64,000 nt of DNA from a virus (taxonomy: Duplodnaviria > Caudoviricetes): IMG/VR virus record IMGVR_UViG_2818991472_000001, positions 64,001 through 128,000 of that record. One strand, given 5' to 3'. Shown piece after piece: positions 9,090 to 59,951 of this stretch (position 1 is its first letter; the number at the start of each line of letters is the position of its first letter). The position numbers and the translations under genes are program-made. The notes beneath the pieces are model-generated. The model made no database searches and had not been told where the DNA came from. It was given only the letters and a program-made list of their open reading frames with translations.

Positions 9090-9132
9090 AATCTAGTGCA
9101 CCGCTATGCGCATAGGCAAGAGGGTTCACTAG
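9090..9132 (-). promoter_or_regulatory. repeated promoter/operator element, copy 1
   Basis: minus strand CTAGTGAAC-cctc-TTGCCT-N18-TAGATT, with GTGCACTAG overlapping the -10. Confidence 0.85.
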
Positions 9133-9449
9133 GATTGGCGGCGCCCCCTCACCCGGTCCACCGCCCGCTGCGCCGCGCCCTGCCCGTGCTCGCGGTCGAA
9201 CAGCCAGCCGTCGAACTCCGTCGCCCCGGGCCGCAGGTCCACCTTCAGCGGCCGAGCGGCCACGTACTCGAACTGGCCGTCCGGGACCTGCTCAAGCCAC
9301 CGGCGAGCCTGCTCGACCGGCACGTCCTCGGGCACGGCGCCCATTGCCGCGTAGACCAGCGCCACCTGGCCACCGCCCCCGCCCAGCCCCGCCTCGTTGA
9401 ACAGCGCGGCCAGGACCTCGGCCCGGTCCAGCCCCGTGATGTCGATCAT
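9129..9449 (-). CDS. conserved phage-type hypothetical protein
   Basis: MIDITGLDRAEVLAALFN...KVDL...FD.WLFDR..G.GAA pattern. Confidence 0.7.
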   Translation of the reverse strand: MIDITGLDRAEVLAALFNEAGLGGGGGQVALVYAAMGAVPEDVPVEQARRWLEQVPDGQFEYVAARPLKVDLRPGATEFDGWLFDREHGQGAAQRAVDRVRGRRQS

Positions 9450-10024
9450 GAACGGTCCATCTCCGTCTCGGTGCGGTGGCTGGCCCAGGCGGCCAGCGTC
9501 TCGAAGTCGTCGTCGGTCAACCCGGTGGCCGGGTCGACCAGGCGCAGCAGCGCCGGGGCCGCGTGCCGGTCGGCGACGAAGGCGCGGTCGGCGTCGGTCA
9601 CCTCGTCGTCCACCCAGGCGAACGGCCGCCCGGCGGCGTACTCCAGGAGCGCGGCCAGCTTCCAGTGCACCCCGCCCGGCCGGTCCTCCTCCGGCGCGTC
9701 ACCGACCGGCACGAGCGGCAGGTCCGGCAGCTGCTCCTCGCCGCCGACCAGGCCGACCGCCGGTCCGATGTAGCGGTTGGCCAGCTCGTTCCAGCTGGTG
9801 CACCACACCAGGTCGTACGGCAGTGCGCGCAGCCGGGCGCCGTGGCCGGGGTGCAGCCACACCTTCGGCAGCCGCACGTAGTAGGAGGGCTTGCCCGGGG
9901 TGCCGCCGCTGCGCAGGTGGGTCCAGCGGTGCGGCGTGTACCCGGCCGGGCGGCCCTCGGGCCGGGTGCCGTAGGCGTTCAGCGGGCCGTCGACGTCCAG
10001 GAAGAGCAGCGGGCGGTCAGCCAC
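9446..10024 (-). CDS. HAD-superfamily phosphatase (Swiss-army-knife RNA-repair-like HAD)
   Basis: LFLDVDGPLN motif I, VWCTSW motif II, K, WVDD motif IV. Confidence 0.8.
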   Translation of the reverse strand: MADRPLLFLDVDGPLNAYGTRPEGRPAGYTPHRWTHLRSGGTPGKPSYYVRLPKVWLHPGHGARLRALPYDLVWCTSWNELANRYIGPAVGLVGGEEQLPDLPLVPVGDAPEEDRPGGVHWKLAALLEYAAGRPFAWVDDEVTDADRAFVADRHAAPALLRLVDPATGLTDDDFETLAAWASHRTETEMDRS

Positions 10025-10361
10025 GGCCAGCCTCCCGGGCGCCGTGCACGGCGGGCGGGGCAGCGGAGAGCAGCACGTTGTACCGCAGGTGGCTGCTCCG
10101 CTCGGCGAGCAGGCCGTTCAGCCTGGCGGCGGCTCCCTGGGCGACCTCCAGCAGGCCGCGCTCGCGGTCGGTCAGGCCGTCCGGGCCGATGGCGGGCTCC
10201 CGGGGCTCGAAGCCCTCGGCGCCGCAGTGGACGCAGCGCCAGCCCTCGCCGTCCGGCCCGGAGTGGGTGGTCTCGGTGTCGTGGTCGTAGGTGTCCCCGC
10301 AGACCACCCCCGCCCGGTCGTCGGCCAGGGCCTGTTCCAGGCCCTTCGGCGGGTATGTCAC
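10017..10361 (-). CDS. hypothetical protein
   Basis: AAGGAGGAG RBS; CVHCG motif. Confidence 0.6.
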   Translation of the reverse strand: MTYPPKGLEQALADDRAGVVCGDTYDHDTETTHSGPDGEGWRCVHCGAEGFEPREPAIGPDGLTDRERGLLEVAQGAAARLNGLLAERSSHLRYNVLLSAAPPAVHGAREAGRG

Positions 10362-10410
10362 GGTGCTCCTCCTTCGAAGTGCTGTGTTGCTGAGTTAAGC
10401 ATCTCTGCGG

Positions 10411-11230: not shown

Positions 11231-11959
11231 TCACCGGCGCAGCGCCGCGAGCAGCTCGGTGTACTTCTCCGGCTGCTCCTCGGGCCAGACGCCGTAGCCG
11301 TTGCGGGCCTCGTTCAGGTCGTGGGTGATCGCGGAGTACAGGGCCAGGACGGCCGGGTTGTTGCTGATCTCGGAGCGGTCGGCGGTCCAGTCGAAGCCGG
11401 TGTCCTCCAGCCACCCGGCGATGATCATGGCGCGGGTCTTGGTCCGGCAGTCCATCGCCACGATGACGCCCGGGGTGGCGTCGGCGGTCGGCAGGGCGAC
11501 GGTCCAGGCCATCGGGGAGTGGTTCGAGGGCTTGCGGCGGGCGACGACCAGAGTGGCCGGGGCGGCCGGGCGCGGCGGCTTGGCGGCGGGCTGCTCCGGT
11601 GCGGGGTGCTCGGCGAGCAGGGCCTTCACCTCGTCCAGGGTGTCGTACGCCTTGAACAGGCTGCTCCCGCCCCAGGTGCGGGCGGCGGCGGCCTTGAGCA
11701 CGGCGTCCGTGGCGCAGCGGCCGGACTCGACGAGCAGGATCTTGTGGTCCTTGGGCAGCACGGCGGCCGTGGCGAAGGTGCGGCCGTCCGGTCCGCGCAT
11801 CGCCTTCACCGTGCCGTCGCGGCGCACCGAGGTGACCAGCGCCGGAGTGAAGGTGACGGCCTCGGAGGGCTGCTCCTGGTTGATGTAGAAGGCGCGGTGG
11901 ACCTCGCGGTAGACCGCGAGCTGTCCCCGGGTAGCGCGCAGCGGGGCGGTGGTGGTCAT
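11231..11959 (-). CDS. hypothetical protein
   Basis: GGAGA RBS; first gene after repeat promoter at 11999. Confidence 0.7.
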   Translation of the reverse strand: MTTTAPLRATRGQLAVYREVHRAFYINQEQPSEAVTFTPALVTSVRRDGTVKAMRGPDGRTFATAAVLPKDHKILLVESGRCATDAVLKAAAARTWGGSSLFKAYDTLDEVKALLAEHPAPEQPAAKPPRPAAPATLVVARRKPSNHSPMAWTVALPTADATPGVIVAMDCRTKTRAMIIAGWLEDTGFDWTADRSEISNNPAVLALYSAITHDLNEARNGYGVWPEEQPEKYTELLAALRR

Positions 11960-11998
11960 CGGTGTCTCCGGTTCTTGGCAGGGTTGGTGACAGGCAGG

Positions 11999-12040
11999 AA
12001 CCTAGTGCAACGCTGTGAGTATGCGCAAGGTGTTCACGAG
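11999..12040 (-). promoter_or_regulatory. repeated promoter/operator element, copy 2
   Basis: CTCGTGAAC..TTGCGC-N18-TAGGTT. Confidence 0.85.
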
Positions 12041-14750: not shown

Positions 14751-15845
14751 TCAGGCGGCGTGCTGGGCGGCGTCGGTCTGGTCGTACGGGAGGGGGATGG
14801 GGGCGGGCAGGGTGCGGGTGGTCTCGGGCCACCCCTTGCGCCACTCCTCGACCACGGTCAGCACGATGGGGCCGGTGACGCCGTAGTAGGCGGCGAGCAC
14901 GCGCACGGCGTCGTCCTTGGTGGTCTGGGCGGTGCCGACGACGCACCCGGCGGTGCCCTCCTCGGCGTACCACTTGCCGTCTTCGGTGATCACGCAGCCG
15001 CCGAAGTTGGCGGAGGTGACCAGGCCCTTGCCGCGTTCGACCATGTCGACGGCGACGGCGGTGGTGGTCATGATCGCGGTGAGCGCGTCGGCGGCGGCCC
15101 GGTGGGTGGCGACGGTCTTGGCGCAGTCGGCGGCGGACTTCTCGGCCTTGGTGGCCACGGTGGTCCAGTGGTGGGCGCGGTCGTCGCCGGGGCGCTCGGC
15201 GAGGGCCCGGCGGTGGCGCTCGGCTTCGGCGGTCTCGCGGCGCTCCTGGTCGGCCCAGTGGGCGGCGCTGCGCTCGTGCTCGGTGCGGAAGCGCTCCAGG
15301 GTGGGGGTGTCGGTGACCACCATGATCACGCCCACCTCGTCCCGGGTCTTGCCCGCGTACAGGGTGATGGTGCCGCCGTTGTTGATCATGACCTCCCCGT
15401 GCTCGGCGCGGACGCGCTCCACCGCCTCCCAGACCTCGGCCGGGGTCTGGTGGGTGAGGGGGCGGGAGGTGCCGCCCCAGGTGTCGGCGTAGCCGTAGGC
15501 GGGGGCGGTGAGGTGCTCGCGGGTGACGGGGATGCCCTTGACGGGGCGCAGCGGGGTGCCGGGGGTCACGCGCAGCATGGGCACGTGGTAGGTGCTCTGG
15601 GCGCCCCGGTGCTGGGAGGTGCGTTCGACGTCGTAGCCGCGCTGCTCCAGGGCGGTGGCGATGTCGTCGAGGGCGGTGGCGTCGGTGCCCTCCCAGGTGA
15701 CGGCGACTTCCCCGGGGGCGGTCTGAGAGACCTGGTAGCCGGTGTGGGGGTTGCGCCGGATGCCCTTGTCCGTGAGTGCGGTGGTGGTGGCGAGTTGGCG
15801 GGAGATGGTGGCGGCGTGGGCGGTGGTGGCGGGCTTCGCGGTCAT
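14751..15845 (-). CDS. multi-module hypothetical protein
   Basis: first gene after repeat promoter at 15890; N-terminal repeated module. Confidence 0.7.
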   Translation of the reverse strand: MTAKPATTAHAATISRQLATTTALTDKGIRRNPHTGYQVSQTAPGEVAVTWEGTDATALDDIATALEQRGYDVERTSQHRGAQSTYHVPMLRVTPGTPLRPVKGIPVTREHLTAPAYGYADTWGGTSRPLTHQTPAEVWEAVERVRAEHGEVMINNGGTITLYAGKTRDEVGVIMVVTDTPTLERFRTEHERSAAHWADQERRETAEAERHRRALAERPGDDRAHHWTTVATKAEKSAADCAKTVATHRAAADALTAIMTTTAVAVDMVERGKGLVTSANFGGCVITEDGKWYAEEGTAGCVVGTAQTTKDDAVRVLAAYYGVTGPIVLTVVEEWRKGWPETTRTLPAPIPLPYDQTDAAQHAA

Positions 15846-15889: not shown

Positions 15890-15932
15890 AAGCTAGTGCA
15901 CAGCGATGAGTATGCGCAAGCTGTGTCACTAG
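15890..15932 (-). promoter_or_regulatory. repeated promoter/operator element, copy 3
   Basis: CTAGTGACA...TTGCGC-N18-TAGCTT. Confidence 0.85.
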
Positions 15933-16012
15933 ATTGGCTGGCCGGGCCGGACAACAGGCCGCCCCGCTGCTCCCGTCACCAGGGGCGCAGCGGGGCGGCC
16001 ACCGCCACGGGC

Positions 16013-16729: not shown

Positions 16730-17698
16730 CTAGGCCACCTCGGCCACCGGCTTGACCACCGCGACCATCAGCCGCTGCCACTTCGCCAGGATGCCGCCCG
16801 GGGGCACGTCCTCCAGGGTGATCACGCTCTCACCGCGCCCCTGCTCCCGGTACCCGGCCACCACCGCCGAGCGCACCAGCGCCACCGCCCACGCCCGGTC
16901 ACCGTGCTTGCTCCGGGTCGCGTGGGTGGGGAACTCCTCCCACACCCCCTCGAACAGCTCGCCCTGGGGCACCAGCGCCTCAGCGATGGCATCCGCGTCC
17001 GCCCGGCGCCGCTCCCCCTCCCGGTGCCAGTCCAGAATGGTCTGGTCCACCACGCGCAGCGCTGCGCCGTCGCGCCCCTCGATCAGCAGCACGCCGAACC
17101 CGGCCGCCTCCAGCGCCGCCTTAGCCTTGCCCACGGTGTCCGCGTGCCCCTCCGGCGCAGCGATGCGCGCCCCCTTGTCGTCGGAGAACGCCCGCTGGAA
17201 CGCCGCCTGGTTCTGGGCGCGGTAGTACCAGGACACCGTCACGGACGTGCCCCCGCCCTCACCCCGGCCGGGCGCGTCCTGCCGGAAGCCGTCGCTGTGC
17301 ACGCCGAAGAACCCTCCGGACTTGACGCTCTGCTCCAGCCCGGCCCCCTTCAGCACCCGGGTGATGGACCCCTTGACCGGCTCACGCACCGGCGCGGGCG
17401 CGGCCACCTCCACCACCGCCTGCTGCTCCCCGCCCTCACGCTGCTCCCGCTCGGCGCGGACCTCGGCAAGGGTGGCGTCCAGGGCTGCCTGGCGGTCGGA
17501 CTCGATGCCGGTGGCCGTGGTGAACCCGGTGTCGGTGAGGACGTAGCCGCCGTCCCCGGCGGCGCTCAGGTAGCCGTCGGCCGCGAGCGACACCAGGGTG
17601 CGCAGGTTGCCGGTGACGCGGCGCAGCGGGTTGTCGAGGGGGCTTTCGATCCCGGTGAGCAGGGCCTTGGACTTGGCGGGGCTGAGCTTGCGGGCCAT
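16730..17698 (-). CDS. multi-module hypothetical protein (wHTH-like N-terminus + repeated module)
   Basis: GGAGG RBS; first gene after repeat promoter at 17740. Confidence 0.7.
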   Translation of the reverse strand: MARKLSPAKSKALLTGIESPLDNPLRRVTGNLRTLVSLAADGYLSAAGDGGYVLTDTGFTTATGIESDRQAALDATLAEVRAEREQREGGEQQAVVEVAAPAPVREPVKGSITRVLKGAGLEQSVKSGGFFGVHSDGFRQDAPGRGEGGGTSVTVSWYYRAQNQAAFQRAFSDDKGARIAAPEGHADTVGKAKAALEAAGFGVLLIEGRDGAALRVVDQTILDWHREGERRRADADAIAEALVPQGELFEGVWEEFPTHATRSKHGDRAWAVALVRSAVVAGYREQGRGESVITLEDVPPGGILAKWQRLMVAVVKPVAEVA

Positions 17699-17739
17699 GG
17701 GGTCCTCCGGTGCTTGGCAGGGCGTTGGTGACAGGAAGA

Positions 17740-17782
17740 AAGCTAGTGCACCGCTGCGCGTATACGCAAGTGGGTTCACGAG
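17740..17782 (-). promoter_or_regulatory. repeated promoter/operator element, copy 4
   Basis: CTCGTGAAC...TTGCGT-N18-TAGCTT. Confidence 0.85.
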
Positions 17783-19946: not shown

Positions 19947-19989
19947 AAGCTAGTGCACCACTTCGCGTATACGCAAGTGGTTTCACGAG
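19947..19989 (-). promoter_or_regulatory. repeated promoter/operator element, copy 5
   Basis: CTCGTGAAA...TTGCGT-N18-TAGCTT. Confidence 0.85.
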
Positions 19990-20035
19990 AGTGGGGCCGG
20001 GCGGCCCGGGGTGACGGGGCCGCCCGGCTGTCTAG

Positions 20036-20946: not shown

Positions 20947-20989
20947 AATCTAGTGCACTGTCATGAGTATGCGCAAGACAGTGCACAAG
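20947..20989 (-). promoter_or_regulatory. repeated promoter/operator element, copy 6
   Basis: CTTGTGCAC...TTGCGC-N18-TAGATT. Confidence 0.85.
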
Positions 20990-21041
20990 AATGGGTGCCG
21001 CCCCGTCGTCTCCCGGGGCGGCACCCTCTCTCTCCGCAGCG

Positions 21042-23925: not shown

Positions 23926-23968
23926 AATCTAGTGCAACATAATGAGTATGCGCAAGATGGTTCACTAG
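23926..23968 (-). promoter_or_regulatory. repeated promoter/operator element, copy 7
   Basis: CTAGTGAAC...TTGCGC-N18-TAGATT. Confidence 0.85.
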
Positions 23969-24043
23969 ATTCGTTCTGGAGACGCCTCGGCGGCCGGGCC
24001 CGGTAAAGGGGCTCCGGCCGCCGAGGGCAGGAAGAACCGCAGG

Positions 24044-26762: not shown

Positions 26763-26805
26763 AATCTAGTGCACACCAATGCCCATACGCAAGTTGTTTC
26801 ATTAA
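26763..26805 (-). promoter_or_regulatory. repeated promoter/operator element, copy 8
   Basis: TTAATGAAA...TTGCGT-N18-TAGATT. Confidence 0.8.
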
Positions 26806-31149: not shown

Positions 31150-31659
31150 TCACCAGTCCAGGGAGAACCAGACGACCTTGGTGTCGCCGCGCTTCACGAC
31201 GCCCCACTCCTCCGCCATGGCCTCGACCAGGAGCAGCCCCCGGCCACCCACCAGCCCCTCACCGTCGGCGCCGTCGATGTCCTCGAAGCTGACCGGCTCG
31301 GACGCCTGCGCGGGCACCGCGACCTTGTCGGCGGACTCGGGGTCGCCGTCGATGACCTCGATCAGCACCCGGGCGTCGGCGCGCAGTTCGGCGCGCACCA
31401 CGACCTTCGCTTCGTCGCCTTCCGGGTCGTCGGCGTGGCGGACGCTGTTGGTGATGATCTCGGACAGCAGGAGCACTGCCGTCTCGATGACCCGCGTGAT
31501 CCCGTGCCACTGCGTCAGGCGCTGGCGCAGGTCGTCGCGGGCGACACCGACGCTCTCGGGATGGGCGGGGTAGGGGCGCCGGTACGGCTGGAATCCGTCG
31601 GGGTTGGCGCGCGCCAGTCTGTTGCTGGCGGCCTTCGCGGTCTGGCTCACAAGTCTCAC
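31150..31659 (-). CDS. HATPase_c ATP-binding protein (anti-sigma/AbaA-like)
   Basis: LLLSEIITNSVRHA N-box, IEVID, GGRGLLLV, WGV...KVVWF. Confidence 0.9.
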   Translation of the reverse strand: MRLVSQTAKAASNRLARANPDGFQPYRRPYPAHPESVGVARDDLRQRLTQWHGITRVIETAVLLLSEIITNSVRHADDPEGDEAKVVVRAELRADARVLIEVIDGDPESADKVAVPAQASEPVSFEDIDGADGEGLVGGRGLLLVEAMAEEWGVVKRGDTKVVWFSLDW

Positions 31660-31866
31660 GCTCCAGGGGCGTACGAGTGGAACCGGGCATCACCCACCCT
31701 GGCCCGACGTGCGCACAGCGTGAGCGTCTCCAATACCCACGGTCCCGCAAGATCCGCGAAACTGCAACAATGTCAGCTGAACGAATGTCATTTCGATAGT
31801 GGAGTTTGACGCTTCGACACGTCAGACTGATCCTTGGACACCGGACGAGACCAGGGAGACAACGGG

Positions 31867-32727
31867 ATGGCGTACGAGGGCGTTCCAACGGTTCGCAAGC
31901 GCCTGCTCGGCTACCACCTGCGGCAACTCCGCGAAGCGGAGGGTCTGAAGTGGGAGGACACCGCTGCTCGACTGCAGGTCGCCAAGCCGACCGTCATGCG
32001 CCAGGAGAGCGGCCACAGCGCGGTCTCCAGCGCCAACCTTGAAGTCCTCCTCGACTTCTACAAGGTCGGCGACCTGGACAAGCGCTCCCGTCTGGAGGCG
32101 TTCCGTCAGCACGGCCGCAAGCGGGGCACCTGGCACGCCTTCGGCACGGAGATCGGCCCGACCCTGCGGGACCTGGCCGACGCCGAGTCCATCGCCACCA
32201 GCATCCTGTGGTGGGAACTCGGGGTCATCCCGGGCATTCTGCAGACCGACGAGTACGCCGAGGCCACACTGCGCGGCGCCAGCGTTCAGGCCACCAACGA
32301 CGAAACGTTGCGCGAACTGGCGCACCTGCGCCGTGAACGCAGGCATACCCTGGAGAAGGACGGTGCTCCCGAGGCGTGGTTCATCCTCGGTGAGGCCGCT
32401 CTGAGGACCAGGACCGGCGGCCCTGGGAAGGCCGTGATGGAGACTCAGATCCGCTACCTGCTCGACATCAGCGAGCAGCCCCACGTGAACATCCAGGTCG
32501 TGCCGTTCGCCGCCGGAGCCCACCCAGGCGTGGCAGGCAGCTTCACCCTGCTCGGGTTCGACCAGGTCCTGACCTACCAAGCCCTGTACTTCGAGACGGC
32601 CGGGATCATCACCGATGAGGAGAAGTTGGTGGGGGAGAACCAGGCAAGGTTCACTCGCCTGCGGTCCCAAGCCGAGTCGACTCAGCAGAGCCGGAAATTC
32701 CTCCGGGAAGTTCTCGCTACTCTGTGA
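31867..32727 (+). CDS. XRE-family HTH regulator with DUF5753 domain (WhiJ/Scr1-like)
   Basis: RRxLGxxLRxLRE, IPGILQTxxYA, ILGEAAL, IQVVPFxxGAH. Confidence 0.9.
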   Translation: MAYEGVPTVRKRLLGYHLRQLREAEGLKWEDTAARLQVAKPTVMRQESGHSAVSSANLEVLLDFYKVGDLDKRSRLEAFRQHGRKRGTWHAFGTEIGPTLRDLADAESIATSILWWELGVIPGILQTDEYAEATLRGASVQATNDETLRELAHLRRERRHTLEKDGAPEAWFILGEAALRTRTGGPGKAVMETQIRYLLDISEQPHVNIQVVPFAAGAHPGVAGSFTLLGFDQVLTYQALYFETAGIITDEEKLVGENQARFTRLRSQAESTQQSRKFLREVLATL

Positions 32728-32756
32728 GTCAACTCGCAAGTACGAAGGGCTCTCCA

Positions 32757-32993
32757 GTGAACACACCATCCCAGGGGTACAAGCAGTGGCGCATCTCGTC
32801 GGAATCGGGCGGTGACCAGGGGTCTTGCGTCGATGTCGGCCTCGGCGACCTCGACGCCGAGACCGAGGAAGTCGCGTTCCGGGACAGCACGCTCCAGGGT
32901 AGGGGGCCGGTCCTCGGCTTCCCTGCGTCCGCAGTGACCGCGCTGACGGGCGCAATCAAGGTCAGGGGCAGCCGTCTCGCGGGCGGCTTCTGA
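32757..32993 (+). CDS. DUF397 protein, copy 1
   Basis: WRISSES...CVDV...FRDS...GPVL.F..A..A....K. Confidence 0.85.
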   Translation: MNTPSQGYKQWRISSESGGDQGSCVDVGLGDLDAETEEVAFRDSTLQGRGPVLGFPASAVTALTGAIKVRGSRLAGGF

Positions 32994-33011
32994 CCAGTGC
33001 GCAACCAGAAT

Positions 33012-33046
33012 GGTGGCCCCCGGCGCGCGATTCGCCGGGGGCCACC
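33012..33046 (+). terminator. hairpin terminator
   Basis: ggtggcccccggcg...cgccgggggccacc. Confidence 0.7.
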
Positions 33047-33186
33047 CCTGTTTCTACCCCATCGGGCCGTCAGAGCCTCTCATACCCGTTTGAAGATGCA
33101 TGGTCACATTCCGGCGATAGACGATCCCGCCCGGGGCATTCTCGCTACGCTGTGAGTCGCAACCCGCGAGAGCGAAGGGCGTTCCG

Positions 33187-33420
33187 GTGACACCGTCTCA
33201 GGGCTACAACCAGTGGCACATCTCGTCCCACTCCAACGGGGATCAAGGCGGCTGCGTCGATGTCGGTATCGACGCAGCCGCCCCCGAGGCCGAGGAGATG
33301 GCCATCCGGGACAGCACGCTCCAGGGCAGCGGGCCGGTCCTCGGCTTCCCCGCCTCCGCCGTCAGCGCCCTCACCAGCGCCGTGAAGACGAAGGGCCACC
33401 GTCTCGCGGGCGGCTTCTGA
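33187..33420 (+). CDS. DUF397 protein, copy 2 (tandem duplicate)
   Basis: WHISSHS...CVDV...IRDS; near-identical to copy 1. Confidence 0.85.
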   Translation: MTPSQGYNQWHISSHSNGDQGGCVDVGIDAAAPEAEEMAIRDSTLQGSGPVLGFPASAVSALTSAVKTKGHRLAGGF

Positions 33421-35013: not shown

Positions 35014-35056
35014 AATCTAGTACACCCACAAGAGCATGCGCAAGTGAGTTCACTAA
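35014..35056 (-). promoter_or_regulatory. repeated promoter/operator element, copy 9
   Basis: TTAGTGAAC...TTGCGC-N18-TAGATT. Confidence 0.85.
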
Positions 35057-47165: not shown

Positions 47166-47170
47166 CGCGG

Positions 47171-49230: not shown

Positions 49231-49566
49231 GGTCAGGCCCCTCTTGGAGGTGAATCCCGGTGTGGTGGCCCTGTCCCGGCCGAACAGCTGAAGGTGATTT
49301 TCTGACCGATCAACCAGCTACTGTCATGGCTCGGCCGGGGCAGGGAGTCTCGGGTTCGTCGGAGGCCCGGGGGTTTCCGGCGCCTCGGGCCTCCGACAGG
49401 CGGGTGGGGGGAACCGCCTTGGTCCGCACGCGAGACCTACCGGGGAGCTGGGGTCTCAAGCGGTGCGGGCCGCCCCGTGCGGCAACCTGCGCGGGGCGTT
49501 CGTGGGTGGTGTGGGTGCCCCTTCCCGGCTGGGGCTGGTACTGCTACTACCGGGCCGGTCCGGCGG

Positions 49567-49890
49567 CTACTGGATGGCGCGGGCTCGTGCGGCGACCCCT
49601 TCCAGGTGCTCCTGGAAGATCTTGGGTGCGTCGGGGCCCGCGAGGGTGTACAGCGCGACCATCCCGGTGAGGATGGTGTCGCCGATCTCCTTCTTGACGT
49701 CCTCCCACGTGTGGGTGATGCCCTTGCGGGGGTTTTGACCGAGGACTCCGCTGACGGCCTCGTGGACCTCGCCCACCTCCTCCCCGATCTTCATGATGCG
49801 GAGGAGGCGTTCCGTCTCGGGCGGCAGGGTGCTCTTGCCGTCGAGCCAGGCGACGAGATCGCCGATGTGGTCCCAGGTCTGCTGTTCCAT
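49567..49890 (-). CDS. MazG-like nucleotide pyrophosphohydrolase
   Basis: KIGEEVGEV.EA..G..GQNPRKG...EIGD. Confidence 0.9.
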   Translation of the reverse strand: MEQQTWDHIGDLVAWLDGKSTLPPETERLLRIMKIGEEVGEVHEAVSGVLGQNPRKGITHTWEDVKKEIGDTILTGMVALYTLAGPDAPKIFQEHLEGVAARARAIQ

Positions 49891-49924
49891 GCGTTGCGTC
49901 CGCTTCGGGTCGGGGCGCCGTCGC

Positions 49925-50767: not shown

Positions 50768-51386
50768 TGGTTCCCCTCCGCAGGGTGCCGATCCTGGAGA
50801 CGATGATGTCGGCGACCCGCTCAGGGCTGCGGTTGGTGCAGTCGATGATCAGGGTGGGGTAGCCGACCTTTTCCAGGAAGGTAGCGGCTTCCTCATAGAG
50901 GGCGGCTTCCTTACGGCTGCTTCCGGGCATCTTCTCGAAGCGGCTGTGGGTGCCCCGGGCGGTCAGCCGGGCGTGGATGACCTCGGGGTCGGCGGTGAGC
51001 ACGACGGTCAGGTCCGGGGTGATGGCGTGCTGGTTGATGGCCCAGATCGTCGTGGGGTCGATGCCGTCGAGCCGCTGCAGCACCAGGGAGGAGCCCACGT
51101 AGCGGTCGCACAGGACGGTGTCGCCGCGTTCGAGGGCGGGGGTGATCTCGGTGGCGATGTGGTGGTAACGGTCGGCGGCGACGAGGCAGGCCAGCGACAT
51201 GCCGGTGTAGGTCTCGGTGCCGTGCCGGGCGATCTCGCCGAGGTTGGCCCGGGAGGGTTCGGTGGTGGCGTGGACTGCCGTTCCGGCTGTGGTCAGGAGG
51301 TGGCCGACGGCGGCGACGGTGGTGGACTTGCCGACGCCGCCGGGGCCGTCGAAGGCGACAAACAGGCCGCGCTCGGTGTCGCTCAC
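50757..51386 (-). CDS. tmk: thymidylate (dTMP) kinase-like protein
   Basis: FDGPGGVGKST P-loop, EPS, ADR, CDRY..SS, PDL; GTGA coupling to the rSAM gene. Confidence 0.9.
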   Translation of the reverse strand: MSDTERGLFVAFDGPGGVGKSTTVAAVGHLLTTAGTAVHATTEPSRANLGEIARHGTETYTGMSLACLVAADRYHHIATEITPALERGDTVLCDRYVGSSLVLQRLDGIDPTTIWAINQHAITPDLTVVLTADPEVIHARLTARGTHSRFEKMPGSSRKEAALYEEAATFLEKVGYPTLIIDCTNRSPERVADIIVSRIGTLRRGTSGN

Positions 51387-52501
51387 GAGACGGCCACCAC
51401 GGGCAGCAGGGCGCGCTTGTTCGGGGCGACGGGGCACATCTCGGCGTCGAGGGCGCCGATGCGCTCCCCGGCGGCGACCACGGCGGCCGGGCATCCCTTG
51501 CCGCAGCCGTCTGCCATCGAGCAGCTGCCGCAGGTGGGGTTGGCTCCGACGGTGTACCGCTCGTGGAAGTTGTAGGCGTCCAGGCGGTCGGCGATGTCGG
51601 TGTCGGTGAAGATGTTGCCGACGATGAACTCGGTGTCGGCGTGCTGGGAATTCGGGGTCCGGGCGGCGAAGACGAGGTAGGGGCAGACGGTGACCTCGCC
51701 CGGGGCGAAGACGTAGATGATCGTCCCGGCCTCGCAGTTCGCGAGGGGTTTGGTGTCGTTGGGGAAGCGGATGTGGACCAGGTCGAGCTGGTCGCTGGCG
51801 AACGGGGAGGTGAGGTCGTGGATGTGCCGCATGTGGTCGTCCGACCGGGCGAGCTTGTTCTTGCTCTTGACGCCGCGCCCCATGCTGGAGAGCGGGTTCA
51901 TCAGGACGTAGGAGGCGCCCTGCTCGCTGGCGAAGGCGCACAGCTGGGCGTACTCCTCGTCCTCGGCAAGGTTGTTCGGGGTGCAGAGCAGGCCCTGCAG
52001 GAGCCCGGCCTGGGCCAGCCGCTTCACCGTCTCCACGGTGGTGTAGAACGACTCGCGGTCGCCCCGGAACTTGCCGTGGGAGTCGGCGGCGAAGCCGTCC
52101 AGGCTGACGTTCACGTGGATGTCGCCCATCTTGGCCAGGGCCGTGATGTGGTCGTCCGTGATCAGGGTGGCGTTGGTGCACAGTCCCACGCCCATGCCCG
52201 CGTCGCGGAAGGCGGCGGTGACGGCGAGGAAGTCGGGGTGCAGGAACGGCTCTCCGCCGGTGAGGGTCACCCGGGTGACCCGGGCCGCCTTCAGCTGGGG
52301 GATGACCTTGGTCCGGATGTCCTCCAGCGGCATCGTCACGCCGGTCTTGAGGGCGCTGACGAAGCAGTGGGCGCAGCCGAGGTTGCAGGGCTCGTTGATT
52401 TGGACGAGCGCCTTGCGGTAGGGCTCCACGACGGAGGTCCGGAAGTAGCAGGACACGGCCTGCTCGTCCGTCATGATCCGGCGTGCTGTCTTCTCGCTCA
52501 T
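51383..52501 (-). CDS. radical SAM protein with SPASM domain
   Basis: CNLGCAHC, TGGEP, TNA, VSLDG; C-terminal CEAG...CPY...CGSC....CGKGCP...C. Confidence 0.9.
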   Translation of the reverse strand: MSEKTARRIMTDEQAVSCYFRTSVVEPYRKALVQINEPCNLGCAHCFVSALKTGVTMPLEDIRTKVIPQLKAARVTRVTLTGGEPFLHPDFLAVTAAFRDAGMGVGLCTNATLITDDHITALAKMGDIHVNVSLDGFAADSHGKFRGDRESFYTTVETVKRLAQAGLLQGLLCTPNNLAEDEEYAQLCAFASEQGASYVLMNPLSSMGRGVKSKNKLARSDDHMRHIHDLTSPFASDQLDLVHIRFPNDTKPLANCEAGTIIYVFAPGEVTVCPYLVFAARTPNSQHADTEFIVGNIFTDTDIADRLDAYNFHERYTVGANPTCGSCSMADGCGKGCPAAVVAAGERIGALDAEMCPVAPNKRALLPVVAVS

Positions 52502-52736: not shown

Positions 52737-52779
52737 TTAGTGAACTGGGTTGCGCATACTCAATCGAGTGCACTACTGT
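52737..52779 (+). promoter_or_regulatory. repeated promoter/operator element, copy 10 (plus orientation)
   Basis: TTAGTGAAC...TTGCGC-N18-TACTGT with GTGCACTAC. Confidence 0.85.
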
Positions 52780-52817
52780 CGTCCATGTCGCCAACCACCA
52801 CGAACGGGAAGCAGGCC

Positions 52818-53582
52818 ATGTCCAAGACTCCGCAGCTCGTCGGCATCACCACCCCCGTCAAGATCACCCTCACGATCGACGACTGGGAGGGCACCTACGG
52901 CACCGAGCGCAACAAGGCCGAGATCACCCAGCAGCTCGCCTCCCTCACCGTGGAGACCATGCTGAGCACCAACCTCCGCACCGAGCTGTGCGCCCTGATC
53001 GGGCAGACCGGCCACATCAGGACCGACGTGCTCCCCCCGAGCAACACCCTCGAAGCCCAGTTCGACATCGCCACCATCGTGGACACCACGATCTGGGAGT
53101 CCACCTACGGCTCCGACGAAGATGCCCAGCAGATCGCCGACGACGTCGCCAACCGCGTCCAGGAGTACGCCGCCGAGGCCCTCAAGCAGCGCGGCATCAC
53201 CGCCCAGGTCGAGCTGCGAGCCACCCCCACCGTCATCGACGCCACCGGCGACTACACCACCCTCTACCTGGTCTTCGCGCCGCGCGAGAACCCCTTCCTG
53301 GCCACCACCACCGGCGGCCTGCAGAACTTCGCCGCCCGCCTCGACGACGACGCCTGGCTGCGCCCCCTGGACTCCCAGATCGGCGAGTTCGTCGACTACT
53401 GGAACCGCCGGGAGCCGGAGGCGGCGCTGTGGGCCGTCACCACGGAGACCGAGAAGCTGCTGCCCGCGTCCGGCACCGAGCCCAACCTTCACGGCCGCAC
53501 CCCGGTGATCTTCCGGCGCGACCAGATCAAGCCCCTGCTCGCCGTCCTCGCCTCCCCCCAGAACCAGAACCTGGGAAACTGA
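52818..53582 (+). CDS. hypothetical protein with internal duplication (alternative leaderless start 52786)
   Basis: WEGTYGT / WESTYGS repeat; first gene after promoter copy 10. Confidence 0.7.
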   Translation: MSKTPQLVGITTPVKITLTIDDWEGTYGTERNKAEITQQLASLTVETMLSTNLRTELCALIGQTGHIRTDVLPPSNTLEAQFDIATIVDTTIWESTYGSDEDAQQIADDVANRVQEYAAEALKQRGITAQVELRATPTVIDATGDYTTLYLVFAPRENPFLATTTGGLQNFAARLDDDAWLRPLDSQIGEFVDYWNRREPEAALWAVTTETEKLLPASGTEPNLHGRTPVIFRRDQIKPLLAVLASPQNQNLGN

Positions 53583-53610
53583 CCCGTCCTCACCGACACC
53601 GGGAGACGCC

Positions 53611-54018
53611 GTGCACCAGCTCCACCCCCGCGAGCACCCGTGGGGTGACATCCGCCTCGACCACAACGGCGAGGCGACGTTCCTGACCGCCGAGCGCTCC
53701 ACCGACCCGGACTGCCTCTTCGTCCACCTCAAGGTCGCCGACTGCCCGCCGGACCACCAGCTCCTCGACAAGGAGGAGCAGGACGCCGGAGCGGTGCTGT
53801 TCCACATCACCGTCAGCATCCGGCTCCCCCGCGCGGACACGATCGTCCTGGCGCAGTACGAGGGCGGCCCGATCGTTCCCCGCGACATGGCAGCGTTCGA
53901 GTCCGCCAAGTACATGCGCGACGAGATCAACAGGGCCGTCTTCACGGCCCGGTTCAACCTGCGGGCCCTGGCCGCCGTCGCCCACCACCATCCGGTCGCC
54001 GCCCAGGGCACCACCTGA
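53611..54018 (+). CDS. hypothetical protein
   Basis: GGGAG RBS. Confidence 0.65.
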   Translation: MHQLHPREHPWGDIRLDHNGEATFLTAERSTDPDCLFVHLKVADCPPDHQLLDKEEQDAGAVLFHITVSIRLPRADTIVLAQYEGGPIVPRDMAAFESAKYMRDEINRAVFTARFNLRALAAVAHHHPVAAQGTT

Positions 54019-54042
54019 CCACGTATCACCTGAAGGAGCGCC

Positions 54043-54462
54043 ATGAGCACCGAGACCAGCAGTGGCCCCACCGAGTGGCAGCAGAAGCGCCAGGAGGCGC
54101 TCGCCGAGCGCGGCCTGGCCGAGGTCGAGCAGTACTCGCGAGCCAGCGACCTCTTCTACCCCGACAGCATCCGCCCGGCCCGCCGGGGCCGGATCGAGAA
54201 CATCATCTCCCTGGGCCCGACCACCGGCGACACCTACATCGCCGAGCTGGTGGAGAAGTTCAACGGCGAGAACCGCACGTGGTTCGCGGTCGTCATCGAC
54301 GGCAAGAAGGACCCCCAGCGCATGTACACCGCCGACGCGGCCCTGCTGCACTACCTCAGCCGGAAGCACAACAATCCGGACGCCTCCACCGCCGCCTGGT
54401 ACGCCGCCCGCGTCCTGGGCATGCCCGACCTCGACCAGGACCCCGCTGCGCCCGCCTCCTGA
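54043..54462 (+). CDS. hypothetical protein
   Basis: AAGGAG RBS; followed by hairpin. Confidence 0.7.
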   Translation: MSTETSSGPTEWQQKRQEALAERGLAEVEQYSRASDLFYPDSIRPARRGRIENIISLGPTTGDTYIAELVEKFNGENRTWFAVVIDGKKDPQRMYTADAALLHYLSRKHNNPDASTAAWYAARVLGMPDLDQDPAAPAS

Positions 54463-54475
54463 CACACAACCTGCC

Positions 54476-54507
54476 CGGCCCCGTCGCTCTCCCGAGCGAC
54501 GGGGCCG
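54476..54507 (+). terminator. hairpin terminator
   Basis: cggccccgtcgctc-tccc-gagcgacggggccg. Confidence 0.7.
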
Positions 54508-54555
54508 ACGTGTTCAGCAGATAAGCAACTGCCCATCTGTAGGAGTCACCGTTCC

Positions 54556-55116
54556 ATGTCTACACTGCGGAGTATGACCGCCAACCCTGCCTCCACCAGC
54601 GAAGCCACGACGCCGCCAGCCCGCGCCGGACGCCGTGGCGGCCGGACTCGCGAACAGAGCCCCGCGCGCGCCGAACGGCGCCGCCCAAAGCAGGAGCACG
54701 ACCGCCAGACACCGGAGCCGTCGCCTGCTCCCGAGGACGCTGCTCAGATCGACTTCTCCCAGCACCCCGCCCACACCACCCCCTGGCGCCGGACCTCCGC
54801 CCTCCCCGCCACCAAGCGCCTGCCGCGCGTCGGGACGCCGTCGACCCGCACAGTCGTCATGACCCGCGAGCTGGCCGCCCACGTGGACGCCGTCCGGGTC
54901 GACATCGGCACTCCCAACGCCGTCGACTTCACCCTGCTCACCAGCAGTCTCCTGCGCGCCCTGGCCCGCGAGCACGAGGACTACAAGATCCGCGTTGAGG
55001 AGTACCGCCAGACCCACGGGGTCGTCCCCGGGCCAGACGTGGTCCCGCCCGGCCCGATCTTCACTGCGCTGAGTGCCGAGGTCGCCATCGTGATGGACGG
55101 CGGCACCGCCCCCTGA
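54556..55116 (+). CDS. hypothetical protein, possible ribbon-helix-helix in C-terminal half
   Basis: disordered N-terminus then TRTVVMTRELAAHVD...FTLLTSSLL. Confidence 0.5.
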   Translation: MSTLRSMTANPASTSEATTPPARAGRRGGRTREQSPARAERRRPKQEHDRQTPEPSPAPEDAAQIDFSQHPAHTTPWRRTSALPATKRLPRVGTPSTRTVVMTRELAAHVDAVRVDIGTPNAVDFTLLTSSLLRALAREHEDYKIRVEEYRQTHGVVPGPDVVPPGPIFTALSAEVAIVMDGGTAP

Positions 55117-55130
55117 CGGTTGGAGCGACA

Positions 55131-55337
55131 GTGAAGTACCCCCGGAGCAACTGCCGGATCTGCGGCCGTGAGGTCTCGATCCCCGGCAACCGCTACGCCC
55201 GGCACGACCCTCCCGGCCCCCGTGCCCAGGTCGACCTGACCAGCTGCCCAGGGAGCCTCAAGGCCGCGATCCCGCCCCAGGCCGCCATCCCGGGTCTGGA
55301 ACTCCACCAGGCCGAGGAGCACCTGGCCCTGTTCTAG
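55131..55337 (+). CDS. small zinc-ribbon protein
   Basis: CRICGR...RH...CPGS. Confidence 0.65.
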   Translation: MKYPRSNCRICGREVSIPGNRYARHDPPGPRAQVDLTSCPGSLKAAIPPQAAIPGLELHQAEEHLALF

Positions 55338-55528
55338 CCCTCCGTCCCCGGGAGAAGCGCCATCAGCCTCAGGGCAACGTCCACCGCGCTCTCGCCCTCC
55401 CGGGCCGCCGCGAGGTCGACTGGCCGGTGGACGGCCAGCCAGTTGTGCAGGCGCTGCATCTGCGCCACCAGCGGGTCGGCCAGGGCCCGGCCCGGGTCGT
55501 CCGTCGGCGGAGGCGGGAAGCCGCTCAT
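55334..55528 (-). CDS. small hypothetical protein
   Basis: ATGA coupling with 55525..55728. Confidence 0.5.
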   Translation of the reverse strand: MSGFPPPPTDDPGRALADPLVAQMQRLHNWLAVHRPVDLAAAREGESAVDVALRLMALLPGTEG

Positions 55529-55728
55529 ACCCACACCTCCGGGCCTGCGGTCTCGGAGGCCAGCTGCGGGTTGGCCTCCTCCCAGCGCTCTCGGACCGTG
55601 ACCGAGGCCGGGACCGACCCGCTGGCGCATGGGCCGTTGTGGTGCTCGACCACCTCGCACGAGTAGTTCTGGAACTCCCCGCCCACCATCGCCCGGCACG
55701 ACCGCTCCGGGAACACTGCTCGACGCAT
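55525..55728 (-). CDS. small Cys/His protein
   Basis: GGAGGAG RBS; C...C....H.GPC. Confidence 0.55.
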   Translation of the reverse strand: MRRAVFPERSCRAMVGGEFQNYSCEVVEHHNGPCASGSVPASVTVRERWEEANPQLASETAGPEVWV

Positions 55729-57627: not shown

Positions 57628-58872
57628 TCAGGCGGTGGTGACGAGGGAGTTCAGCTTGTCCTCCATCGGCTTCTTGATGGTCTGTGAGATGTAGGAGGGG
57701 GCGACGCCGAGCACGAGCGCGAGGAGAGCGCCGGTGCACTTCTGGCCGTGGTCGGCGCAGATGTCGTGGATCTTGACGGCGAGGTCGACAGTGTCCTCGA
57801 CGGAGCGGCTTCCACGGCGCTCGGGGATCTCGGTGAGGAGAGCGTCCTGGAGCACCTTGGGCAGTCGCGTGAGCGCCGTCTTGCCGTCGGCGCCGACCAG
57901 CCCGAGGGAGAGACGCTGGTCGGCCGGGGGCTTCTGCGGCGGGATGGGGACCGTCACGATCTGCTTCGGGGCCTTGACGGCGGCGGGGAGCACGTTCTGG
58001 GTCTTCGTCAGCGCGGGCTTGACCGGGGCGGGGGTGAGCTGCAGGCCCGCGAGGGCGAGCGTGGTGTTGACGGCCGGGGCTTCCGGCTCCCGGGTCACTT
58101 CCACCGACGGGGGCAAGAGAAGGTCCGTCATCGGGTCGTCGACGACGAGGAACCGCCAGGCCAGCGGGATGCTCTCGTCGGCGGCCTGGGCCTGGGCGAT
58201 CAGGAACCGGGCGGCCGTACGGGCGTCGCAGCCGCTGAACCACATGACCCGCTTGACCTTGAACATCGGCAGCGGGGCGAGCAGGACCTGGGCCCGGCGC
58301 AGGCGCGGTACCGGGGCCGGGAGGATGCCCTGCTCGATCAGCTTCTGCCGCTCCTCGGCCTGCTGGGCGCGGCGCTGCTTCTTGACCGCGTGCCACTTGG
58401 CCTGGAGCGTGCTGAAGTGGGCGCCGATCCACAGGACTGGCGGGAGGGCGTGGTACGTGGAGGCCCAGGGGTTGGGCCAGCTGTCGTGGATGTTGAGCGC
58501 GATGCTCGCGCTGGCGAGCGCGAGGACCATGAGGTTGATTCCCCAGGTCCGGCGGCCGTCCTCGGCAGCGCTGATGGCCTTCCAGGAGTAGGCGAAGACG
58601 CCGAGGTCGGCCAGGAAGGCCGCGACGTACGCTTCGGACGACCCGGCGCTGAAGCCGACCTTCAGGGCGAGGCCGTAGAGGGTGCGGTAGCTGAGGTAGA
58701 ACGCTCCGGCGGCGAGGACGTAGTCGACGCCGTAGGCCAGGGCGCGCTCGCCGATCTTGAGGTGGCGCCACCAGCGGACCTTGGCGGAAGCCAGTTCCTG
58801 GCCCGATTCCGTCGGAGCGGACGCGAACGACACCTGGTCTTCGCTAGTCTTTCTCCTGGACATCCTGAGCAT
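57628..58872 (-). CDS. DUF2637-like membrane protein (Spd/transfer-associated type) with C-terminal HTH-like tail
   Basis: F.LSY..L..LA...G...D....S...N......HALPP four-TM pattern. Confidence 0.7.
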   Translation of the reverse strand: MLRMSRRKTSEDQVSFASAPTESGQELASAKVRWWRHLKIGERALAYGVDYVLAAGAFYLSYRTLYGLALKVGFSAGSSEAYVAAFLADLGVFAYSWKAISAAEDGRRTWGINLMVLALASASIALNIHDSWPNPWASTYHALPPVLWIGAHFSTLQAKWHAVKKQRRAQQAEERQKLIEQGILPAPVPRLRRAQVLLAPLPMFKVKRVMWFSGCDARTAARFLIAQAQAADESIPLAWRFLVVDDPMTDLLLPPSVEVTREPEAPAVNTTLALAGLQLTPAPVKPALTKTQNVLPAAVKAPKQIVTVPIPPQKPPADQRLSLGLVGADGKTALTRLPKVLQDALLTEIPERRGSRSVEDTVDLAVKIHDICADHGQKCTGALLALVLGVAPSYISQTIKKPMEDKLNSLVTTA

Positions 58873-58955
58873 CGTTTCCTCGCGGGAGCGTCGTGGTGGG
58901 TGTTCGGGAAACCCTCGGCGGCTCCTGCTAGAGCACCGTCGGGGGCTTTCTCGTT

Positions 58956-59873
58956 TCACGAGATGGGCTGGCCAGGCCAGTCGGGGTCGAGAAGAAGGCC
59001 CAGGTCCGAGAAGGAGCGTGGCAGTTCCAGCAGTTCCTCGGGGACGGGCAGGCTGGACACCGCCTTGTTCGGCGCCGAGTCCGGCATCCGGTTGGTGCGC
59101 TTGAGCGACCTGTAGACGGGCGCGGTCATGAACGGAGTGCCGTCCGCCCACGCGATGTGGCGCACCGGGTGCCCCTCGTCGCTGGCGATGCCGATCAGCT
59201 GGTCCTGCAGTTCACCAAGGTCCTGGGAGGCCCTGGCGAGCAAGTGCCGCGCCTGGCCCGCAACGCGGAGGCGCTCCATGAGCGGGGTCCAGGTGACCTT
59301 CTTGTCGTAGGCGCCCTCAAGCTCGGGGTTTGTCTCTCCCGAGGGGATGATCTCCTTGAGGAAGCTGAGGTCGGGCAGGCGCTGCTGCGCCTTGTCGAGC
59401 TGTACGGCTTGCACGCCGTTCTTCAACCGGTCGCGGGCGCGGTCGGTCTCGTACCCCGCTTCCCGCCACACGTTGTAGATGGGGCGGGTCTCCCGGGTGG
59501 ACAGTCCGGAGACCGTCCCGAGGTGGATGGCGGGCTGATTCTCCGACCAGCCGAGCAGCCAGAGGCCCTTGCGGTACTCCTCGATCTCGTGGACCGCCTG
59601 CTGCAGGAGCGCGCGGATCGGCACCGTCTTCACCAGTCGGTCGGTGGCGGCGGTGCTGACGAAGGCGTGGGGCCGGTTCTCCGGAGTGGAGCCCTGGCTG
59701 AGCCCCCCTTCGTCACGTATGCGCTGAGGAGGCGTTACACCGTGCAGGCGCATGTGGGAGCCGAGCCCAGCCGGGCCCTTGCAGACCTTCCCGCACGTCT
59801 TGCAGCGGTAGGCGTCCGCGTCGGCTTCCGGTTCTCGCGTCGGCTCGGAACCCGTGGGTGTGCTGGGTACCAC
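58956..59873 (-). CDS. C2H2 zinc-finger protein
   Basis: YRCKTCGK.C....GL.SHMRLH; first gene after promoter copy 11. Confidence 0.7.
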   Translation of the reverse strand: MVPSTPTGSEPTREPEADADAYRCKTCGKVCKGPAGLGSHMRLHGVTPPQRIRDEGGLSQGSTPENRPHAFVSTAATDRLVKTVPIRALLQQAVHEIEEYRKGLWLLGWSENQPAIHLGTVSGLSTRETRPIYNVWREAGYETDRARDRLKNGVQAVQLDKAQQRLPDLSFLKEIIPSGETNPELEGAYDKKVTWTPLMERLRVAGQARHLLARASQDLGELQDQLIGIASDEGHPVRHIAWADGTPFMTAPVYRSLKRTNRMPDSAPNKAVSSLPVPEELLELPRSFSDLGLLLDPDWPGQPIS

Positions 59874-59908
59874 CGAACCCTCCTTCCACGGTCAGGCGTG
59901 ATGACGGA

Positions 59909-59951
59909 ACTCTAGTGAACTAAGTGTTGCATGGGCAATCGAGTTCACTCA
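59909..59951 (-). promoter_or_regulatory. repeated promoter/operator element, copy 11
   Basis: TGAGTGAAC...TTGCCC-N18-TAGAGT with GTTCACTAG. Confidence 0.8.

Follow-up and report, generated by a model that had tools for sequence, protein, structure and literature searches.

What is the role of a sequence of about 43 bp that stands, in near-identical form, ahead of eleven separate groups of genes on one replicon? This question is raised by a 64,000-nucleotide stretch of DNA (the window; positions 64,001 to 128,000 of IMG/VR record IMGVR_UViG_2818991472_000001) that corresponds to C8:64001-128000, C8 being a 155,259-bp contig of a 10.09-Mb assembly. Here we describe eleven copies of an element that joins promoter-like geometry to an inverted repeat, demonstrate that it is confined to C8, that C8 is a Streptomyces phage-plasmid, and that relatives of this phage share the architecture with palindromes of their own. 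The explanation that we consider probable is that the elements are promoters of the host HrdB type fused to the operator of one regulator encoded by the replicon itself, most likely a repressor, which would switch about 45 genes together.

Aligned on their sense strand, the eleven copies share the consensus CTAGTGAAC-n4-TTGCGCATACTCA-n5-GTGCACTAGATT. Coordinates run from the left arm through the end of the -10 hexamer, in window numbering, and all copies except copy 10 lie on the minus strand. Copy 1 (9090..9132; -10 TAGATT at 9090-9095) heads a long unit whose first open reading frame (ORF) is 8442-9086. Copy 2 (11999..12040; TAGGTT), in which the gap from left arm to -35 is shorter by 1 base, heads ORF 11231-11959. 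Three copies have the -10 TAGCTT: copy 3 (15890..15932), with inward-extended arms CACAGC/GCTGTG, ahead of ORF 14751-15845; copy 4 (17740..17782), ahead of ORF 16730-17698; and copy 5 (19947..19989), with inner arms CCACTT/AAGTGG, ahead of ORF 18737-19903. TAGATT recurs in copy 6 (20947..20989), whose dyad is the most complete of all (GTGCACTGTC/GACAGTGCAC) and which heads ORF 20036-20905; in copy 7 (23926..23968), heading ORF 21042-23879 (945 aa); in copy 8 (26763..26805), with a degenerate left arm (TTAATGAAA), heading ORF 24044-26719 (~891 aa); and in copy 9 (35014..35056), heading ORF 33786-35006. Copy 10 (52737..52779; TACTGT), the sole plus-strand copy, heads a six-ORF unit at 52785-55666, and copy 11 (59909..59951; TAGAGT), the most diverged, has perfect arms GTGAACT/AGTTCAC and heads ORF 58956-59873, which is followed by a DUF2637 gene at 57628-58872. 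The sequence-only reading had reported eleven copies of an element of about 40 bp, and every one is present, with starts that differ from ours by no more than 3 nt.

The element is specific to this replicon. The strict sub-pattern GTGAAC-n3/4-TTGCGY has five matches, against 0.01 expected. With a weight matrix built from the copies, which themselves score 35-55 bits, all matches of at least 18 bits in the whole assembly are these C8 sites; when the threshold is lowered to 8 bits, C8 yields the eleven sites and their palindromic mirror matches, and the other 9.93 Mb yield four weak matches. Isolated half-sites were not found on C8. A genome-wide check of the kind that the sequence-only reading had proposed thus places the element on the extrachromosomal replicon, the rest of the 10-Mb genome being without copies. 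Part of the signal is the tetranucleotide CTAG, which had been described as scarce in such DNA and is so: on the chromosome it occurs about 18 times per 100 kb versus about 240 expected from composition, an under-representation of about 13-fold, and 13 of the roughly 52 CTAG sites on C8, a quarter, lie inside elements.

Every copy is positioned as a start signal. By a gene call based on G+C at third codon positions (GC3), all eleven are intergenic and co-oriented with the next ORF, as had been claimed, although two overlap the last few bases of the ORF upstream. A start codon with a GGAG-type ribosome site lies 35-55 nt downstream in nine copies; in the other two the start codon follows at about 5-7 nt, and their mRNAs may be leaderless, as at copy 9, where the ATG is 7 nt past the -10. 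Strong, separate hairpins lie directly upstream of four copies, all on the minus strand: GC-rich terminator-like hairpins at 15957..16000 (ΔG -41), which ends the upstream unit 24 nt before copy 3, at 19996..20028, 6 nt before copy 5, and at 23985..24026, 16 nt before copy 7, and an intrinsic-terminator-like hairpin of 13 pairs with a T-rich tail at 20993..21026, 3 nt before copy 6, which the terminator scan calls. At these four copies the layout is therefore terminator, promoter, gene, which argues that the elements start units and do not end them; the same scan calls none of the eleven elements as a terminator.

The promoter-like half of the element has a fixed geometry. A -35-like hexamer, TTGCSY, stands exactly 18 bp before the -10 in all eleven copies and shares only TTG with the consensus TTGACA / NTGACC. 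The -10 is TAGATT in five copies, TAGCTT in three and TAGGTT, TAGAGT and TACTGT in one each; the TAGVTT proposed earlier thus describes nine of the eleven and misses TAGAGT and TACTGT, and TANNNT describes them all. Among mapped promoters of Streptomyces coelicolor, a -10 of the form TANNNT is found at 80% of start sites and the -35 (NTGACC) is weaker, the median 5' untranslated region (UTR) is 44 nt, and 21% of mRNAs are leaderless (PMC4895711). The elements fit this picture in their -10, their predicted 5'UTR lengths and their possibly leaderless copies, and less clearly in their -35-like hexamer. We consider it very probable that they are promoters read by the host RNA polymerase.

Two further short sequences lie close to these promoters. 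Directly after the -10, four elements carry an extra conserved stretch, TTCCTGTCACCA (11985-11998, 17726-17739, 19933-19946 and 20933-20946), and copies 8 and 10 have a weaker form of it, TGTCGCCA; it may be a second control site or the initial transcribed sequence. A CC(C/T)GCCA(A/C) box occurs 8-15 nt before the GGAG ribosome site in many 5'UTRs of this phage (for example within 9040-9060, 11960-11990, 17700-17730 and 19905-19940) and of all its relatives, also before genes that have no promoter element; ACCCGCCA is present in 15 of 70 intergenic segments of the relative cg35. The box is not complementary to the anti-Shine-Dalgarno sequence; it may act as a signal for translation or be bound by an RNA-binding factor.

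The operator-like half is a dyad that spans the promoter. It has two inverted arms of 9 bp. The left one, CTAGTGAAC, lies ahead of the -35 with its centre near -45; the right one, GTGCACTAG, extends into the -10 and shares its first three bases. Pairing reaches 69.7% of cells in the proposed register, compared with 21-41% in slid registers, and nine of the eleven copies keep a conserved A/G mismatch in the arms (GTGAAC vs GTGCAC). The gap between the arms is 22 nt and their centres are 31 bp apart, about three helical turns, a spacing that is constant in ten of the eleven copies. Between them lies a conserved middle box, TTGCGCATAC, that is longer than a -35 requires and resembles the left half-site of the operators of three related phages (MH60, G171 and NPDC021080; see below). 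Since a protein spanning both arms would cover the entire promoter, this arrangement favours repression.

The replicon that carries these sites is a circular, 155-kb, myovirus-like phage-plasmid of Streptomyces. C8 (69.6% G+C, compared with 73% for the chromosome) has PHROG matches to a large terminase, portal, tail proteins, a tape-measure-like virion protein, a DnaE-type polymerase, a DnaB helicase and a second helicase. Joining its ends (154674-155259 to 1-~890, outside the window) restores an uninterrupted 491-aa helix-turn-helix (HTH)/RepA-like ORF on the minority strand, with a full-length homologue in a relative, which is why we regard C8 as circularly closed. The sequence-only reading had set the element on a conjugative plasmid and had counted an ArdA-like gene among those it controls. 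This setting does not hold: phage particle and replication genes are present, FtsK/TraB-type (PF01580) and relaxase (PF03432) matches are absent from C8, which together identify a phage-plasmid and not a conjugative plasmid, and ArdA (PF07275) has no match in the whole genome. Identity of the C8 portal is about 40% with the portals of actinobacterial phages (~140-155 kb) of Mycobacterium, Rhodococcus and Gordonia and 62-69% with those of other Streptomyces replicons, namely pRLB1-9.1, a 154-kb circular plasmid of Streptomyces sp. RLB1-9 with a ParA, four more replicons of 151-157 kb, and IMG/VR genomes of 150-166 kb, of which there are dozens. In IMG/VR as a whole the related portal genes number at least 80. 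Relatives are annotated as non-mobilizable and have been recovered as viral genomes with terminal repeats; our search of the literature found no paper on this phage family or its promoters.

Comparative evidence comes from ten of these relatives, five Streptomyces plasmids or contigs (pRLB1-9.1, NPDC021080, A0642, cg35 and MH60) and five IMG/VR genomes. Each has 9-19 copies of its own repeated promoter in the equivalent block, co-oriented with the genes. Counted in the five Streptomyces replicons, there are 19 copies in pRLB1-9.1 (TTGACA or TAGACA, then GGCAAC-N4-GTTGCC, then TAGAGTGGG), 17 in NPDC021080 (CGCACT-N4-AGTGCG abutting TAGGKTGG), 11 in A0642 (a perfect 20-bp palindrome, AGCGCACTCG/CGAGTGCGCT, abutting TAAGGT), 10 in cg35 (CGCACT-N4-AGTACG) and 9 in MH60, which shares ATGCAYATCGATRTGCAT before TAGNTT with the IMG/VR genome G171. 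Another IMG/VR genome, G172, has ACTCCTGCAA/TTGCAGGAGT before TAGAGT, and two more (G173 and G174) have related CTCC...GGAG dyads; ATGCATAT-CG-ATATGCAT is among the palindromes of the ten. The constants of the family are a TANNNT-type -10 (in its narrower form TAGNNT), frequently with GG after it, a -35-like hexamer 17-19 bp before it, and a palindrome at the same promoter position, abutting the -10, where at least six distinct palindromes occur among the ten relatives. Copies of one genome agree in their arms and vary in their central bases; from genome to genome the palindrome has another sequence but is a palindrome still. This is the signature of a co-evolving dimeric DNA-binding protein, and it is the pattern expected where a promoter for a conserved polymerase also carries a site for a dimeric protein that has diverged in specificity from phage to phage, in the manner of immunity. 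The few genes that are homologous between phages, such as ORF 14751-15845 and its A0642 homologue, each stand behind their own phage's element, from which it follows that the signal evolves in concert within a genome and does not travel with the gene.

This operator appears to be private to its phage. The 31-nt core pattern has no match in public viral-contig or genome-contig collections, and the two arms with a gap of 21-23 nt have 29 single matches in the same collections, which is chance level; by these scans no other sequenced element uses it. Near-identical DNA was absent from the phage collection, and one short unrelated match was obtained in the plasmid collection. The design also differs from that of its relatives, in that here the arms bracket the -35, whereas all ten relatives have a compact 18-20-bp palindrome that fills the spacer between -35 and -10. 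One reading is that an ancestral compact operator may have gained a few inserted bases and a new left arm may have been recruited on the same face of the helix. In one relative, G174, whose DNA is 68% G+C, a 16-bp AT-only palindrome, ATCATTTTAAAATGAT, lies about 25 nt upstream of each promoter (for example at 7115, 11660, 28519 and 29735), and other relatives have looser, possibly UP-like, T-rich patches at that position.

Together, these observations support the claim that a repeated promoter with an operator-like dyad defines a co-regulated, mostly uncharacterised gene set, and they suggest the following model. The element would be the standard start signal of a hypervariable, mostly ORFan block, and the host housekeeping (HrdB/sigma-70-type) RNA polymerase would read TTGCGC, the 18-bp spacer and TAGNTT. 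One oligomeric, sequence-specific regulator encoded by the replicon, likely a repressor, would occlude the whole promoter, such that the eleven units would be silent in the plasmid-prophage state or shut off after an early phase, and the promoters would fire where the repressor is absent, as upon entry into a naive cell. We favour a repressor for several reasons: the site fills the spacer in the relatives, a good -35 lies at 17-18 bp in most of them, and a plasmid-prophage must keep some 45 foreign genes quiet.

Which protein might act as the regulator? One candidate is a complete WhiJ/BldB/AbaA-type cassette at 31150..33420, consisting of an HATPase_c_2 gene (31150-31659, minus strand), an XRE-HTH+DUF5753 gene (31834-32727, plus strand) and two DUF397 genes (32757-32993 and 33187-33420, plus strand) that are paralogous and 72% identical. 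A cassette of this type is present in 7 of 11 family members examined. Among six Streptomyces replicons, the identities between the WhiJ-like HTH proteins follow operator similarity and not core phylogeny: the two replicons that lie nearest to each other by core genes, pRLB1-9.1 and MH60, have unrelated operators and HTH proteins of only 41% identity. In addition, a recognition-helix motif is common to the three phages with CGCACT half-sites, and G171 and MH60 share both recognition helix and operator, which brings to seven the genomes in which this protein goes with operator type. The one WhiJ protein that has been studied binds direct repeats beside its own locus (PMC10294661), and the promoter region of the cassette described here contains AATGTCA direct repeats and a TGACG...CGTCA dyad. 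We regard the WhiJ-like protein as a weak and doubtful candidate for the protein that binds the element. Another candidate regulator is the 305-aa product of ORF 58956-59873, behind copy 11, which has a C-x2-C-x12-H-x3-H C2H2 zinc-finger motif at residues 24-44; such motifs are rare in bacteria. This ORF sits ahead of the DUF2637 gene, at the place where five relatives have an unrelated, conserved gene of ~170 aa that we call gene X. Three other genes were considered and rejected. The tandem-XRE gene behind the DNA polymerase does not set the specificity, because its recognition helix is invariant across phages with different operators; identities of the RepA-like HTH gene that spans the contig junction do not sort by operator type; and the syntenic gene X after the first element, kept in five relatives and replaced here, follows core phylogeny rather than operator type when its sequences are compared by eye.

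Several findings weigh against a repressed host-type promoter and should be set beside those that support it. No cognate regulator can be assigned: four IMG/VR relatives are without a WhiJ-like gene and three of these still have palindromic promoters, and the intergenic promoter region of the WhiJ cassette itself has no element-like box. An E. coli-type promoter scan does not call the element sites, in which the -35-like hexamer matches only at TTG. The 31-bp spacing of the arms, in which this phage stands apart from all ten relatives, is unusual for a simple dimer. Lastly, there is modest copy-specific complementarity just inside the arms, which a pure protein-operator model does not predict.

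The weak -35 also bears on the alternative that survives best, namely that these are activator-dependent, middle-class promoters at which a dimeric phage activator bound to the dyad would recruit the host RNA polymerase, in the manner of a MotA box or a MerR-type protein. The left arm, near -45, is where a class I/II activator would sit, and in A0642 and some NPDC021080 copies a very degenerate -35 accompanies a strictly kept palindrome; here the -35 is TTGCGC. Most relatives, however, have TTGACA or TAGACA at 17-18 bp, such that their promoters look self-sufficient, and a palindrome that fills the spacer occupies the position of a repressor, save for the MerR type, which needs spacers of 19-20 bp. 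Moreover, actinobacterial promoters commonly work on a -10 alone. Taken together, we consider activation unlikely.

The complementarity inside the arms could instead mean that the palindrome acts as a nucleic-acid structure, either as an RNA hairpin in read-through transcripts (a terminator, an RNase III site or a stabiliser) or as a cruciform or hairpin in the DNA by which the promoter is gated. Some copies do fold well as single strands (z -6.4, -4.0, -4.0 and -3.5), although those at 12002, 26766 and 35017 fold no better than shuffled sequence (z near 0). Native pairs of arms out-fold chimeric pairs in this phage (p=0.002 as RNA, 0.02 as DNA), in NPDC021080 (p<0.001) and in pRLB1-9.1 (p=0.009); in A0642, cg35 and MH60 the effect is absent, and elsewhere it is carried by a minority of copies. 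The covariation score of this phage was reached by 9 of 500 shuffles and comes mainly from two positions just inside the arms, with 3-4 double changes, yet fixed-register complementarity in its variable columns is not significant (p=0.30), no consensus structure came out of RNAalifold (-0.9 kcal/mol) and the window is without an Rfam match. The arms, moreover, are conserved in sequence and not merely in pairing, and transcripts that start at the element would be without the left arm.

In sister phages some promoter copies are near-perfect hairpins of 40-45 bp (NPDC021080 at 133855, 137256, 138476, 144867 and 24262; pRLB1-9.1 at 64813 and 103319; cg35 at 116046), whose outer stems vary from copy to copy yet remain complementary; where a -35 would be expected, these copies have the complement of their -10 region. 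Such extended hairpins might be supposed to compensate for absent terminators, but this was rejected: hairpin strength shows no significant trade-off with upstream terminators (rho -0.19, p=0.10; the correlation is positive in this phage). Four copies here already have separate terminators, which speaks against a structural role of the element. Intrastrand template switching could account for the palindrome having been extended repeatedly, or the extension may reflect a secondary role at some sites.

The related suggestion of the sequence-only reading, a single-stranded DNA hairpin promoter, fails because the folded dyad rebuilds no duplex -35/-10: in the fold the left arm faces the -10 and the -35 ends up in the loop, several copies barely fold, and phage DNA enters as a duplex. 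We conclude that structure is not a general function of the element and hold a primary role for it to be very unlikely. It is likewise quite improbable that the 43-bp dyad forms an extruded cruciform or hairpin when the DNA has just been injected and is highly supercoiled, or is briefly unwound, so that structure gates the promoter, or that it doubles as an insulating RNA hairpin between cassettes, in which case the compensatory changes inside the arms, the conserved A/G mismatch and the long hairpins with co-varying outer stems in sister phages would be its footprints.

Could the repeats be unregulated, one strong promoter having spread by duplication or gene conversion with the dyad as its passenger? 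That promoters evolve in concert within each genome, and that no regulator has been assigned, would be in keeping with this. A neutral passenger, though, would hardly keep palindromy at the same position in ten further genomes with differing sequences, and eleven strong constitutive promoters ahead of about 45 foreign genes would probably be costly to a plasmid-prophage, for which reasons we find this explanation highly improbable. In a further alternative the elements would be recombination sites, akin to integron attC, that delimit exchangeable cassettes and are used by a tyrosine recombinase of the replicon. In favour, the elements set apart ORFan cassettes that relatives hardly share, the palindromes are imperfect, with the A/G mismatch in nine of eleven copies, and a weak tyrosine-recombinase-like gene lies at 45584-46678. 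The recombinase match, however, scores under the Pfam cut-off, and each site keeps to one orientation and to promoter geometry with respect to the gene that it precedes. Moreover, sites of one genome are alike and those of different genomes unlike, also where the genes behind them are homologous, the opposite of what cassette-borne sites would show; the chance that they serve recombination is very remote. Finally, the establishment regulon of a conjugative actinomycete plasmid, equivalent to the pKM101 CUP elements or pLS20 and including an ArdA-like gene, would account for an extrachromosomal replicon on which one conserved upstream sequence precedes many genes of like orientation, and for the DUF2637 gene in the set, but is contradicted by the complete phage particle and replication set of C8, its want of transfer and ArdA matches and the viral nature of its relatives, and is scarcely credible.

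If the elements are promoters, as we propose, the genes behind them form eleven predicted transcription units of about 45 genes in total. The element-bearing block extends over roughly positions 1-60,000 of the window and has almost no detectable orthologues in the five Streptomyces relatives, to which the proteins of the virion and replication modules are 45-85% identical. Pfam and PHROGs searches with about 60 block proteins were almost entirely blank, the exceptions being DUF2637, DUF6283 and weak HAD and methyltransferase matches, and about 40 of the genes downstream of elements have no informative match in either. The sequence-only reading had put these genes forward as candidate anti-defence or host-takeover factors, roles that would be hypothetical. 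The DUF2637 family is common on actinomycete conjugative elements. Paralogy was not found among the downstream genes, and gene duplication is therefore not the means by which the promoters were spread. One part of the window, 36000-52500, has a lower G+C (65-68%) and no element, and its genes must use other promoters; these include the tyrosine-recombinase-like gene, a DUF6372 gene and an operon at 49925-52501 with radical-SAM, thymidylate-kinase and exonuclease-phosphatase-family genes.

The element would thus bring about 45 genes of unknown function into transcription units under one point of control, in the most rapidly evolving region of a widespread, unstudied family of ~155-kb Streptomyces phage-plasmids. 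It predicts eleven transcription starts, and the 43-mer can be used as bait for the regulator. Across the family there are matched pairs of promoter and operator with differing specificities, which could become orthogonal repressible promoters for Streptomyces. The bracketing arms of this phage, set against the compact spacer palindromes of ten relatives, amount to a small natural experiment in which the operator was rebuilt and the promoter kept.

How does this arrangement compare with known systems? By our analysis its logic, one regulator acting at many operator-promoter copies, would add no new category to those already known from phiC31, P1, L5 and RK2. The 41-kb genome of phiC31 has conserved inverted repeats (CIRs), bound by the c repressor, beside conserved early promoters and tail-less terminators. 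It too is a temperate Streptomyces phage with one palindromic site at many intergenic positions near repeated promoters and terminators, but it differs in phage family, size (155 vs 41 kb), sequence and the plasmid-prophage lifestyle found here, and in the present case the dyad, of 43 bp with arms 31 bp apart, is built into promoters that look host-type. In phiC31 all the sites answer to the one c repressor, of which no homologue was found here, although no search aimed at one was made. In P1, likewise a plasmid-prophage with many dispersed operators that overlap promoters, the C1 immunity repressor acts at more than 10 scattered sites; these are asymmetric 17-mers at functionally diverse operons, whereas the site here is symmetric, bipartite or tripartite, and part of a near-identical promoter cassette confined to a hypervariable ORFan block. 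With KorA/KorB of RK2 and the gp71 stoperators of mycobacteriophage L5, one protein silences many units through ~10-30 dispersed sites. KorB sites are of the ParB type and often act at a distance, and L5 stoperators are asymmetric, orientation-dependent and mostly block elongation; in contrast to both, the site here is part of the promoter core. The middle promoters of T4 also exist in many copies and combine a host-type -10 with a phage-specific box that replaces or overlaps the -35, but the MotA box is asymmetric and needs remodelling of sigma by AsiA, most relatives of the present phage keep a good -35, and we know of no MotA or AsiA homologue in this phage. It is the sister phage-plasmids that share family, fast-evolving block and design alike, each with 9-19 host-type promoters that carry a phage-specific palindrome.

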